A DNA stretch of 64,000 nt from Eledone cirrhosa (taxonomy: Eukaryota): positions 157,976,001-158,040,000 of the forward strand of contig OZ024740.1 of the NCBI GenBank assembly GCA_964016885.1, given 5' to 3'. How positions within the stretch are numbered: position 1 is the first letter of the stretch; each line of letters starts with the position of its first letter. Positions 4,183 through 58,520 of the stretch are shown here, one piece after another. Position numbers and translations under genes: made by a program. Under the pieces are notes generated by a model. It was not told the DNA's origin and did not search any database. It saw only the letters and a program-made list of their open reading frames with translations.

Positions 4183-4246
<64 letters not shown>

Positions 4247-4530
4247 AAATAACGAAACGAAATTAAATTTCGTTTCGCTTCTAACTCACTTTTGTATGAC
4301 TGACGCTTAAACAATTAAGTTAAAGTGTACATCTACATATGTATACGGAAGTATTAGTATGCATATAAATACACACATGTATACATATGTACATGTACTC
4401 AGCTTTTCACTAGACACTTTACAGTGAGTGTCAGCTAGTCTGTATGTAACCACACAGGCGGACCGGGTTTTAGAGTCATACGAGTTTTCAAGGAAACACA
4501 TTTCCTCTATTCTCCAGAGGGCCAGACAGG

Positions 4531-4575
4531 AATATTGGACTAGTTTCGATGTTATTACATCTCATCAGCAATATT
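4531..4575 (-). ncRNA. Type-I hammerhead ribozyme (intact core)
   Basis: Minus strand: AATATTG CTGATGA GATGT aata ACATC GAAA CTAG TC CAATATT; 7-bp stem I, 5-bp stem II, palindromic ACTAGT helix III, GUC cleavage triplet. Confidence 0.9.
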
Positions 4576-4999
4576 TACCCATCTTCCGGCTTCTCTGGAG
4601 AATTGTAAAAGCACATATCGTTATATGTTTTTTCTATGAAAATTAGTAGTGGGTAGACTAATTTGCATAGAACGTGAGTCATTGTACGCACCGGTTCAGC
4701 GGAAACGATAAAAACAAATAACGAAACGAAATTAAATTTCGTTTCGCTTCTAACTCACTTTTGTATGACTGACGCTTAAACAATTAAGTTAAAGTGTACA
4801 TCTACATATGTATACGGAAGTATTAGTATGCATATAAATACACACATGTATACATATGTACATGTACTCAGCTTTTCACTAGACACTTTACAGTGAGTGT
4901 CAGCTAGTCTGTATGTAACCACACAGGCGGACCGGGTTTTAGAGTCATACGAGTTTTCAAGGAAACACATTTCCTCTATTCTCCAGAGGGCCAGACAGG

Positions 5000-5044
5000 A
5001 ATATTGGACTAGTTTCCATGTTATTACATCTCATCAGCAATATT
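5000..5044 (-). ncRNA. Type-I hammerhead ribozyme (second monomer, one stem II mismatch)
   Basis: Same as 4531-4575 except a C>G change at the base of stem II. Confidence 0.8.
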
Positions 5045-5468
5045 TACCCATCTTCCGGCTTCTCTGGAGAATTGTAAAAGCACATATCGTTATATGCTTT
5101 TTCTATGAAAATTAGTAGTGGGTAGACTAATTTGCATAGAACGTGAGTCATTGTACGCACCGGTTTAGCGGAAACGATAAAAACAAATAACGAAACGAAA
5201 TTAAATTTCGTTTCGCTTCTAACTCACTTTTGTATGACTGACGCTTAAACAATTAAGTTAAAGTGTACATCTACATATGTATACGGAAGTATTAGTATGC
5301 ATATAAATACACACATGTATATCCGCCTGTGTGGTTACATACAGACTAGCTGACACTCACTGTAAAGTGTCTAGTGAAAAGCTGAGTACATGTACATATG
5401 TATACATGTGTGTATTTATATGCATACTAATACTTCCGTATACATATGTAGATGTACACTTTAACTTA

Positions 5469-5564
<96 letters not shown>

Positions 5565-8312: not shown

Positions 8313-8416
8313 CGAAACATAAGTCAATTGCATGAACTCATAATCCTTTATTTACTGCTATATATATTTCGATGATAGCTATTGAATGGCTCATCAGGCA
8401 GTTAGTCAGTTCTTAG

Positions 8417-14642: not shown

Positions 14643-15211
<569 letters not shown>

Positions 15212-15859: not shown

Positions 15860-16290
15860 GATATTAATAAATGGAAACTATATTTATAAAACCATATTTA
15901 TTTCATTATACATATTTCAGGGATACCACATTAAATTATGGTATGCCTTCATCAGACAAAATACAATATATAACAGTTTTACAAATAGGTTTGACGTACC
16001 CTTTAAAATACAACCATTACTTTTGCAGACAGCCTCCAAAAGTAATGGTTGTATTTTAAAGGGTACGTCAAACCTATTTGTAAAACTGTTATATATTGTA
16101 TTTTGTCTGATGAAGGCATACCATAATTTAATGTGGTATCCCTGAAATATGTATAATGAAATAAATATGGTTTTATAAATATAGTTTCCATTTATTAATA
16201 TCGTATATCTACTCCAAAAATTTGTCGAGTGCTTTATATCAGTTATAAAAATATTTACTTGTTGTATCCCAACAATTTTAAATAGAACTT
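15857..16290. mobile_element. Fold-back PLE-derived element with near-perfect ~169-bp arms, an HHR in each arm and a one-sided tail
   Basis: 15857-16025 vs 16037-16206; plus-strand HHR 16099-16163 with stem II ATACCA/TGGTAT. Confidence 0.88.
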
Positions 16291-16941: not shown

Positions 16942-18951
<2,010 letters not shown>

Positions 18952-20582: not shown

Positions 20583-20742
20583 CAAGGCTCTGATACCATC
20601 AACACTATAAACACAGAGCTGGCATATCTAAGAACTGACTAACTGCCTGATGAGGTCATAGCCATTCAATGGCTATCATCGAAATATATATAGCAGTAAA
20701 TAAAGGATTATGAGTTCATGCTATTGACTTATGTTTCGTCAC
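20580..20742 (+). ncRNA. Short TA-flanked element with intact type-I hammerhead (20642-20697)
   Basis: ACTGC CTGATGA ggtc ATAGCCAT tca ATGGCTAT catc GAAA TATATA TA GCAGT. Confidence 0.88.
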
Positions 20743-42492: not shown

Positions 42493-42495
<3 letters not shown>

Positions 42496-45238
42496 GAGGA
42501 GGTTATAGTTCACTTGAAGCATTGTGTAATGAGGTATAAACGTTTGAATATGTATAATAAAGCCAAAACAATGCAGGTATGGACATAGAAAAAAGAATGC
42601 AATTGTAAAAAATATTGTTGACAATTCGTCCTTTACCTTAGATTTATTTAAATGTCCTTAATTTTCGAGATAATATCTCTTCTTCAGAGGGAAATAAAGG
42701 TCTCAAACCAGCGTTCTAAATATCTTGCCAAGCCATGCTGACAGGAAATAGTATAGAGTATCTGTTCTATCTCTAATGTCAAAGAGTTAAAATTAGGTGG
42801 ATAAAGAGTAGTCTCCCTTTAAAAGGGGTTTGTTTAGGGTTTTTATTTTTTAATTTTATATACATGCCTGTATAAGTGTGTGGGAGAATGCATGAAGGTG
42901 TAAGTATGTGAGTGTGTGTGTGTGAGTGTGAGAAGATAAGTCTATTCGTAAATGTGGGGGATAGGTGTTATCTGGTGTTAGAACTGGTTTTGTGTGTGTA
43001 TGTGTGAGAGAGAATAAGTGGAGGTGTAAGCGTGTGTGTGTGCGCGTGCGTGTGTGGGGTGTGTGTAAATATGGGGCTAGAAGCCCTATCAGGTTATAAA
43101 TTGGGTGTTGAGTTCTAGTCTATTATTGATTGGTGGTTGTGTTTTATCTATAATTAGTGCTTCCTTAATTCTAAGATTGCCGAGGTTTCTTTCCTTAGTT
43201 TCTATCCTAACTGTTATGGCTTTGTCGGTGTTTTTGCATTTAACTAGGTGTTTCTTAAATGAGGAAGCGTTAGTATTGAGGTGTTCTTTTATTCTTATGT
43301 GGAGTGGTCTGGTGGTGCTACCTACGTAGAAGTTGTTGCATTTGTCACACTCTAGTCTGTATACGACGTAAGCCTGGTGGCATATGTCTGTGTCGTTGAT
43401 GGGGTAGTTGGCTAGTCTGCAGCAGTTGTCATGTCTGGTGGAGTGTCTCTTGGCCAGCCGTCCGCGCAGAGAAGGACCCGAGTGGGCCAGTTGGATATCC
43501 AGTCCCTCTCGTCTGATGGCTCTGCGGATGGCTGTTGTTATTTCTTCACTGAAGTGTGGGAGCTTCAGGAAGCAAGTGTTCGTGCCTCGGGTGTGGTGTC
43601 CTCTGTTCTTTCTGGCACGGTTTGTGGTGGATGTCGTGTATCCGTTCAGTTTGAGTACTTCCAGGAAATGTGTTGTGTGTGCGTCTCGGTCTCTAGCGTC
43701 GGTGCATTTGTTCCGGATACGTGCCAGTTCGTTCCTTATGTATCCGAACTTGGCACCGAGTGGGAGGACCGATCTGAAATGTACGAACAGGTCCCTGCTG
43801 GCGGCTTTTTTATAGAAGCAGGTGTGGATGTTGCCTTCCTCTGTTACCCTGAGTTGGAAGTCCAGTAGGGATAGGGATCCGCGGTCATCGGGGTGTTCCA
43901 TGCTGAACTTTATACTGGCGTCCATGCTGGAGAATTTTGTGTATATTTTATCTGCCTCCTCACGGGATGATGTAAGGATGGGTATGTCATCTACATATCG
44001 GGTGAAGAAGGCATGGGAATGGCAGGTGTTGAGGGCTCGGCATTCTAGCTGGTTCATGTAGGTGATGGCCAGCAGGCCCGATAGGCTGGATCCCATGGGT
44101 AATCCTGTTGTCTGTCTGTATGTGTGGTGGTGGAAGTACTCAAACTGAACGGATACACGACATCCACCACAAACCGTGCCAGAAAGAACAGAGGACACCA
44201 CACCCGAGGCACTAACATTTGCTTCCTGAAGCTCCCACACTTCAGTGAAGAAACAACAACAGCCATCCGCAGAGCCATCAGACGAGAGGGACTGGATATC
44301 CAACTGGCCCACTCGGGTCCTTCTCTGCGCGGACGGCTGGCCAAGAGACACTCCACCAGACATGACAACTGCTGCAGACTAGCCAACTACCCCATCAACG
44401 ACACAGACCTATGCCACCAGACTTACGTCGTATACAGACTAGAGTGTGACAAATGCAACAACTTCTACGTAGGTAGCACCACCAGACCACTCCACATAAG
44501 AATAAAAGAACACCTCAATACTAACGCTTCCTCATTTAAGAAACACCTAGTTAAATGCAAAAACACCGACAAAACCATAACAGTTAGGATAGAAACTAAG
44601 GAAAGAAACCTCGGCAATCTTAGAATTAAGGAAGCACTAATTATAGATAAAACACAACCACCAATCAATAATAGACTAGAACTCAACACCCAATTTATAA
44701 CCTGATAGGGCTTCTAGCCCCATATTTACATACCCCACACACACACGCTTACACCTCCACTTATTCTCTCTCACACATACACACACAAAACCAGTTCTAA
44801 CACCAGATAACACCTATCCCCCACATTTACGAATAGACTTATCTTCTCACACTCACACACACACACTCACATACTTACACCTTCATGCATTCTCCCACAC
44901 ACTTATACAGGCATGTATATAAAATTAAAAAAATAAAAACCCCTAAACAAACCCCTTTTAAAGGGAGACTACTCTTTATCCACCTAATTTGAACTCTTTG
45001 ACATTAGAGATAGAACAGATACTCTATACTATTTCCTGTCAGCATGGCTTGGCAAGATATTTAGAATGCTGGTTTGAGACCTTTATTTCCCTCTGAAGAA
45101 GATATATTATCTCGAAAATTAAGGACATTTAAATAAATCTAAGGTAAAGGACGAATTGTCAACAATATTTTTTACAATTGCATTCTTTTTTCTATGTCCA
45201 TACCTGCATTGTTTTGGCTTTATTATACATATTCAAAC

Positions 45239-45243
<5 letters not shown>
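42493..45243. mobile_element. Young 5'-truncated PLE (minus, RT + GIY-YIG) with a ~1.1-kb inverted duplication of its 3' end; HHR in both arms; TA-flanked
   Basis: Minus ORF: YRQTTGLPMGSSLS, RYVDDI, LLDF, YVGSTTRPLHIRIKEH; 44124-45243 mirrors ~42535-43665; HHRs CCT CTGAAGA a GAGAT att ATCTC GAAA AT TA AGG at 42656-42690(-) and a one-base variant at 45090-45124(+). Confidence 0.95.
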
Positions 45244-56426: not shown

Positions 56427-56585
56427 TAAATGGAAACTATCTTTATAGAACCATATTTATTTTATTATATATATTTCAAGGATACCAACATTTTGGTACG
56501 TTCTCATCAGATAAAATACAGAAGTTGTTTTATAAATAGTGACATATCCTAAAAAACAAGAAGTTATCGTTTTAAGTTCTGTTTG
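56420..56585 (-). ncRNA. Single-arm copy of the fold-back family with HHR (~56455-56518)
   Basis: Minus: TATTTTAT CTGATGA gaac GTACCA aaatgt TGGTAT cctt GAAA TATATA TA ATAAAATA. Confidence 0.8.
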
Positions 56586-58254: not shown

Positions 58255-58520
58255 ACAATATATTAATAAATGGAAACTATATTTATAAAACGATATTTAT
58301 TTTATTATACATATTTCAAGGGGGGCCACCAAGCTATCCAGGAAGCTCCAACCGCTAAGGTTGTCTTTTTTCAAGGTATGTCAATATTTATTTATAAAAC
58401 TAATCTGTATTGTATTTTATCTGATGAAAGCGCACCATAATTTACCTTGGTGGCCCTTGAAATATGTATAATAAAATAAATATGGTTTTATAATTATAAT
58501 TTCCATTTATTAATATATTG

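Follow-up and report, generated by a model that had tools for sequence, protein, structure and literature searches.

At positions 4243–5476 of the 64,000-nucleotide stretch of Eledone cirrhosa DNA analysed here (the window), non-coding 469-bp units that carry a hammerhead ribozyme motif are repeated in tandem between TA tracts. This locus raises the question of how an element without a protein of its own was multiplied head to tail and inserted. For the non-LTR retrozymes of animals, reverse transcription of a circular RNA into tandem cDNA by Penelope-like elements (PLEs) was hypothesised (PMC7229834), while a 2026 preprint on vertebrate retrozymes favours local amplification and calls the spreading mechanism unresolved (bioRxiv 10.64898/2026.07.22.740005). 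PLE insertions are described as having a tail on one end, an inverted 5'-truncated arm and (TA)n targets (PMC8557442), and an anole PLE uses two internal start sites of reverse transcription (RT) and cuts both strands in vitro (PMC11167929). In this study, we characterized the array in the window and its relatives throughout the genome, and weighed what the anatomy of the insertions implies about their template and enzyme.

Organization of the array in the window

The sense strand of the 469-bp element is the minus strand, and the locus reads on the plus strand as unit, unit, unit positions 1–141 and inverted unit positions 220 to 66. Monomer 1 (4243–4711, minus strand, 36.7% GC) starts at 4243, which is priming site A and the 3' end of the element. 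Its tail (4243–4307, minus strand) lies between priming site A at unit position 1 and priming site B at 65–72, and contains a 12–13-bp hairpin at 4253–4277. Monomer 2 (4712–5180, minus strand) differs from monomer 1 in three places, and at one of these the change is private to monomer 1. The partial third monomer (5181–5321, minus strand, unit 1–141) forms the 5'-truncated end of arm A, and inverted arm B (5322–5476, plus strand) is without the tail and ends at priming site B. The unstranded (TA)n targets on the left (4199–4242; (AT)n tract 4199–4243) and on the right (5477–5561; (TA)n tract 5473–5561) were delimited with Tandem Repeats Finder.

The same program reported a period of 469 with 2.3 copies and 99% matches over 4239–5321, and the longest stop-free frame in the repeated unit has 84 codons, or 64 counted from Met. 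Both results agree with the preliminary description of the locus as about 2.3 near-identical, non-coding 469-bp monomers between TA tracts. The inverted cap described there was also found: 5322–5476 is a 155-nt inverted copy of 4308–4462 that is 99% complementary and lacks unit positions 1–65. A target-site duplication is unreadable at this insertion because the flanks are pure TA.

Hammerhead motif and its conservation

Monomer 1 carries a type I hammerhead at 4575–4531 on the minus strand, with a 7-bp helix I that continues into a long extension, CUGAUGA at 4568–4562, a 5-bp helix II with an AAUA loop, GAAA, and a helix III made up of the palindrome ACUAGU alone (4544–4539), which is the dimer type. 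The cut is predicted after the GUC that ends at 4538, between 4538 and 4537 (unit 295/296). In the fold, the extended helix I arm spans 4511–4601 (minus strand); this stem and the tail hairpin form as had been proposed, and the folding of the monomer has a z value of −9.6 against 100 shuffles. The proposal that each complete monomer has such a hammerhead held for monomer 1. In monomer 2 (5000–5044, minus strand), the core letters are intact, but a G>C change at 5017 removes the G10.1–C11.1 closing pair of helix II, and only monomer 1 therefore passes the motif scan. An Rfam search of the whole window returned nothing at the gathering score; below it were Hammerhead_HH9 at 4516–4586 (E 8.8e-6) and Hammerhead_1 at 5001–5043 (E 0.003). 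Matches to miRNA families were rejected as generic hairpins far under their cut-offs.

An intact hammerhead in one of three versions is present in 226 of 264 units. Fifteen core and palindrome letters are invariant across the eight complete aligned rows, which come from families 64.5% alike, and the variable core positions are N7 and H17. In helices I and II, six pairs are changed on both sides, giving a covariation of 0.212 against 0.089 when shuffled, a control inflated by the relatedness of the rows, and at most 0.083 when slid (one truncated row, L125, was treated as gaps). The ribozyme thus appears, from its sequence, to be kept by covariation in these retrozyme families. A short palindromic helix III is reported to work between two ribozymes in a tandem RNA (PMC4209133), and in the preprint on vertebrate retrozymes, one of nine dimers tested was cleaved and eight were not (bioRxiv 10.64898/2026.07.22.740005).

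Nine more type I hammerhead motifs with an AT-rich palindromic helix III occur in the window, at 8359–8397, 14818–15005, 15907–16155, 18708–18762, 20647–20692, 56466–56510 and 58421–58470. The pairs at 14.8–15.0 kb and 15.9–16.2 kb belong to small palindromes inserted into TA tracts.

A large family and its sister in the genome

A DNA search of the species' own genome (3.0 Gb) gave 589 candidates for the 469-bp unit, 37 of which were scored. Exact-motif matches number 3,165 for the hammerhead type of the window and 5,147 for a subfamily with a GUU cut site, and a degenerate motif spanning both has 9,447; reversed-pattern controls gave none. The window locus is thus one of thousands of insertions of a family that is large (about 9,400 hammerhead units), young and non-coding, and the monomer is not a single-copy sequence duplicated locally, an outcome that the preliminary description had left open. 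The GUU subfamily was first seen in contigs of four runs of unknown kind that aligned to part of the unit, and then in the genome itself. Among those contigs, one of 499 nt is looped, which is compatible with a circle or a tandem.

A sister family with units of about 430 bp, an identity of 64.5% and 13,321 motif matches was met beside the loci analysed (L140:4974–6394, L152:3712–4224, L200, L216 and L217), and at L140 it shows the identical two-arm layout. Its hammerhead has a CUGACGA core, a U–U at the base of helix II and a GUA cut site, and shares the ACUAGU palindrome of the 469-nt family; mixed dimers of the two families are conceivable. Tandem arrays with a 310-bp period at L054:29–2575 and L174:6255–6975 are weakly similar to the hammerhead region.

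Insertion anatomy

We parsed 92 loci, namely 36 best matches including the window and 56 from among the first chromosome-1 matches of two hammerhead motifs, and dropped two local duplicates (L123 and L042) to leave 90. Very short insertions are under-sampled in this set because loci were picked by full-unit or hammerhead matches. One A arm starting at unit position 1 and one B arm starting at 65–72 stand head to head in 52 of the 90 loci; 20 have an A arm only, nine a B arm only, and nine are more complex. Among 145 arms, 80 start at unit positions 1–4 and 64 at 65–72, so that the two primed sites are 65–70 nt apart, and at 133 of the 145 primed ends (TA)3 is found no more than 16 nt away. Where the target is not pure TA, direct repeats of 11–15 bp were found at seven of 15 loci, as compared with 0.19 in 1,000 shuffled pairings (4 of the 52 two-arm loci were not parsed, and two of the 15 rows look mis-anchored and were counted as misses). 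These flanking repeats indicate that the A and B arms belong to one event.

The inner ends of the arms are evenly spread round the unit (KS p 0.43), and each inner junction is unique among the parsed loci apart from two local duplicates. The median arm is 1.5 units long and the longest arms have 17 units; in all multi-unit arms, unit directly follows unit. Identical insertions occur 17.7 kb apart (L122/L123) and about 10 kb apart (L041/L042), and are probably local duplications or assembly duplicates.

The fixed primed ends, head-to-head arms, TA targets and duplications across 90 loci support the integration into TA tracts by PLE machinery that had been suggested for the window. One expectation of the preliminary description failed, namely that a retrozyme would have permuted ends and a pLTR (the terminal repeat of a coding PLE) fixed ones: the primed ends are fixed and only the 5' junction varies. 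Since reverse transcription by a PLE starts at two internal sites (PMC11167929), fixed ends are to be expected and do not make the unit the pLTR of a coding PLE.

Relation to coding PLEs

The coding PLE at 42493–45243 of the window has RT and GIY-YIG domains, a 1.2-kb inverted arm, a tail of about 45 nt and arms 95% identical to each other. The architecture that it was said to share with the array proved common as regards the inverted-arm layout, but no sequence link was seen: blastn of the unit against this PLE gave no meaningful match among the matches listed, and a motif scan of the PLE found no hammerhead. It was therefore rejected as the partner. The 469-bp unit itself has no ORF with the RT and GIY-YIG domains of an autonomous PLE, and no PLE protein match was found inside retrozyme arms in 93 stretches. 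Profile searches of 106 and 72 stretches (858 and 434 kb) gave only the two retrozyme families and no coding PLE ending in the unit, in a sample that is small relative to 10,596 GIY-YIG candidates. The two retrozyme matches nearest to GIY-YIG genes, of those read, are separate insertions in TA tracts. Retrozymes beside a Hydra-type PLE in L164 and L172 were likewise rejected as linked copies, having inserted separately into one TA tract. Open frames of 938, 844 and 1,096 codons with GIY-YIG matches at C1:145872317, C5:100720237 and C1:83815792 (L206–L208) are possibly intact PLEs.

The preliminary description had asked for PLE ORFs adjacent to other copies. PLE coding sequence does abut a retrozyme arm at four loci (L052 and L118, found by a protein search, L055, found by a second search, and L145, found by its translation), in each case at a truncation junction; at all four, the coding piece replaces the B arm and has the opposite orientation. 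L052 consists of TA, a retrozyme A arm, 66 nt in inverted orientation and then, joined via three shared bases, 1.4 kb from the 3' end of a Hydra-type PLE, a piece that comprises the last 38 codons and the 3' UTR, has its own hammerhead and ends at the tail-less PLE site in TA. This arm is 99.5% identical to another copy over its first 626 nt and 97.6% over 1.4 kb, so both partners are young. RWT, DKT, CNCRIKNKC (a CxCX5C linker), the hammerhead and the (TA)n target in the L052 PLE, with motifs read in ORFs, correspond to the marks of the Hydra clade, for which an RWK-like motif, DKT, a CxCX5C linker, a canonical hammerhead and a (TA)n target are described (PMC8557442). At 16950–18800 (approximate) of the window there is a Hydra-type PLE 3' fragment that includes a hammerhead and an inverted arm and whose tail measures about 120 nt; it is an older relative of the coding arm of L052.

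At L055, the retrozyme is joined to another Hydra-type PLE, which is 42% identical to that of L052 and has RWK; L118 and L145 are joined to other PLEs, and some B arms derive from non-coding repeats. Given several PLE families (at least three or four) and non-coding B arms, the chimeras point to shared machinery or neighbour deletions and not to a single partner. Duplications round the chimeric loci are unreadable because their flanks are pure TA. Hydra-type PLEs are the leading candidates for the mobilising enzyme.

Template of the tandem arms

If linear monomers cut by the ribozyme were the template, arms would be expected to stop at the cut. No free 5' end is evident at this site: arm ends within 3 nt of it (292–298) number 2 of 145, where 2.2 are expected, and all 264 units are without an indel at this point. 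Genome-wide motif counts are flat across the cut, with 9,778 at unit positions 220–239, 9,207 at 279–295 and 9,447 at 297–321; each of the three motifs matches 146–150 of 158 sampled units. Arm ends at 270–295 are slightly above expectation (13 vs 8.0, p 0.07).

Variants within arrays were analysed at 28 loci with at least three units (178 units), leaving out L123, L042, L129 (two insertions) and unit positions 120–160. Of 53 differences to the nearest locus, 45 are fixed in every unit, and there are 18 haplotypes. Only three of 90 singleton variants recur between loci, and 18 shared minor variants are confined to five loci, the other 23 having none. A rare haplotype accounts for 70 units at seven loci that are almost identical to each other, with 19 identical full units over both arms at L096+97 and 25 over both arms at L231+232, which are essentially identical apart from a 3-nt gap in one of them; assembly polishing could have smoothed such arrays. 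At L229, of the same lineage, the array runs into an assembly gap, and this locus could be a long uniform donor; L228, a single match considered as a donor with one mutant unit, proved to be a short daughter insertion.

Some arrays depart from uniformity. Periodic shared variants are present in five of the 28 arrays (L041, L050, L106, L130 and L110+111), and the 30-unit array L226+227 is a mosaic with such variants, so that growth and reshuffling at the DNA level are open to long arrays as well. In older arrays, which are mosaics of this kind (L050, L106, L130 and L226+227), multimeric templates or DNA-level turnover also act. At L110+111, a variant recurs in six of 22 units with a three-unit period, in one arm only. 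After nine units, one arm at L234:2265–7302 passes to another haplotype in register, somewhere from unit position 231 to 247, which may be either a template switch between RNAs or DNA recombination.

Alternative explanations

From a ligated circle one would expect uniform multi-turn arms together with a conserved ribozyme whose cut is never a stop, and circles of other retrozymes have been shown experimentally (PMC7229834). We compared this reading with others. PLE machinery might copy an uncut linear multimer from a few long, uniform donor arrays while the hammerhead acts rarely or elsewhere. In vitro, the anole PLE acted mainly on uncut RNA (PMC11167929), uniform 17-unit arrays exist in a lineage of which one array enters a gap, and the absence of a pile-up at the cut is predicted here as well. 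We nevertheless regard this as rather unlikely, because new variants were repeatedly fixed in all units of both arms, which needs a bottleneck of one unit followed by re-expansion, singletons scarcely recur between loci, junctions differ at every locus other than the two local duplicates, and rare use of the ribozyme is hard to reconcile with covariation. Alternatively, insertions could be born at one or two units and grow through slippage or unequal exchange, a route that has been suggested for the retrozymes of Xenopus; the periodic variants, L226+227 included, and the median arm length fit such growth. At several unlinked loci, however, the zero-divergence lineages have 7–17 units in each of the two inverted arms, and 23 of the 28 arrays carry private singletons only, so that we consider later growth improbable as the main source of the tandems.

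Monomers that are cut and left unligated could also give tandems if the reverse transcriptase, having reached the 5' end of a linear monomer, jumped precisely to the following monomer's 3' end. The in-register haplotype change at L234 and the switching of arms to other RNAs show some affinity with this model, but the change lies away from the cut, and the cut itself is marked by neither indels nor arm ends; jumping is very improbable in our view. Least credible to us is a reading of the unit as a coding PLE's pLTR, with the locus as a 5'-truncated copy. A tail, an inverted arm and a TA target are all standard for PLEs (PMC8557442), and the PLEs sampled were a small part of the GIY-YIG candidates; against this, unit follows unit in multi-unit arms, coding sequence adjoins them only at truncation junctions in opposite orientation, the profile searches of 106 and 72 stretches returned only retrozyme copies, and the two matches nearest to GIY-YIG genes, of those read, stand apart from them. 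The reading that we favour over uncut multimers and DNA-level amplification, and hold to be probable, is rolling reverse transcription of a predicted ligated circle by a borrowed PLE-type enzyme. For the window, where a rolling reverse transcript of more than two units had been suggested, the uniform multi-turn arms and the lack of an arm-end pile-up at the cut are indirect support.

Comparison with known elements

Judged by every feature testable in its sequence, the 469-bp family can be classified as a non-LTR retrozyme that seems to behave like a non-autonomous PLE: it consists of dispersed, multi-copy, non-coding tandem hammerhead units without an LTR arrangement, has a GC content below 50% and duplications longer than 4 bp, and shares its genome with PLEs. 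The animal non-LTR retrozymes described in PMC7229834 are likewise non-coding type I hammerhead tandems with GC below 50%, highly self-paired monomers, thousands of copies, duplications longer than 4 bp and PLEs in the same genome. Their units are about 170–400 nt, whereas those of the present family are 463–472 nt, and the two fixed priming sites, tail and inverted arms seen here are absent from their description in the available text of that paper. Their circles were demonstrated, while those of the 469-bp family are predicted. Vertebrate retrozymes, as presented in the preprint (bioRxiv 10.64898/2026.07.22.740005), are similar in having a consensus of 51–972 bp and mostly up to seven units, and are proposed hijackers of PLE enzymes. 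Their link to PLEs is co-occurrence and pLTR homology, in contrast to the insertion footprint here, where no pLTR homologue was found among the PLEs sampled; their arrays are ascribed to local amplification, whereas young 469-bp arrays look long at birth.

Endonuclease-bearing PLEs resemble the family in the inverted 5'-truncated arm, one-ended tail, (TA)n target, two internal RT starts, and cutting and extension of both strands, but are described as having an ORF, a tail of 30–40 nt and partial tandems (PMC8557442, PMC11167929), as opposed to no ORF, a tail of 65–70 nt and perfect full-length tandems in both arms. MRC1 and similar non-autonomous elements of the Chlamys type are also PLEs with multicopy head-to-tail insertions (PMC8557442). 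According to the same source, their 3' ends are like that of the autonomous partner, and Chlamys mostly lack hammerheads; among the PLEs sampled, no such resemblance to a partner was found for the 469-bp family. A short palindromic helix III that pairs two ribozymes is shared with the dimer-type hammerheads of PLEs and the newt satellite, although the 469-bp hammerhead, with a 7-bp helix I plus extension and a 5-bp helix II, resembles canonical type I more closely than it does the minimal form of PLEs (PMC4209133). This kind of element has thus been described (PMC7229834; bioRxiv 10.64898/2026.07.22.740005), and the genome-wide evidence on mechanism is the addition. Among freely readable papers and the main texts of preprints, we found none on such a two-arm footprint for retrozymes.

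Proposed mechanism and significance

In the mechanism that we propose, tandem transcripts would self-cleave after GUC or GUU as dimers through the ACUAGU palindrome, as conservation and published dimer-type hammerheads suggest, and release monomers of 463–472 nt, which may be ligated to circles by analogy with coral, mussel and axolotl retrozymes. Judging from the insertion ends and the anole PLE in vitro, a PLE RT-endonuclease would nick both strands of a TA tract about 11–15 bp apart, and reverse transcription would start at two internal sites flanking the tail. Each cDNA could then go round the circle between 0.1 and about 17 times, and its end would be joined to that of the other cDNA, often over a few shared bases. 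DNA-level duplication or conversion, as seen in older arrays, would later reshuffle the units. We see about even chances for the fuller form of this proposal, in which the circle, an RNA of viroid size, is the true transposition intermediate and both nicks of one PLE cut prime rolling reverse transcription at two sites flanking the hairpin tail, for up to 25 identical turns per event, with a Hydra-type PLE mRNA possible on the other arm.

The PLE tail and inverted arm are hereby linked to priming at both nicks, in an element without an ORF. As the family is young, abundant and uniform, both reverse transcription on circles and local amplification are testable with it, and the exact priming sites, the stagger of about 11–15 bp, the zero-divergence seven-locus lineage and the candidate enzymes make an in vitro assay of the anole-PLE type directly feasible. 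If the proposal is correct, the insertions of two sister families, with more than 20,000 hammerhead units, would document rolling-circle target-primed reverse transcription across the genome of an animal.
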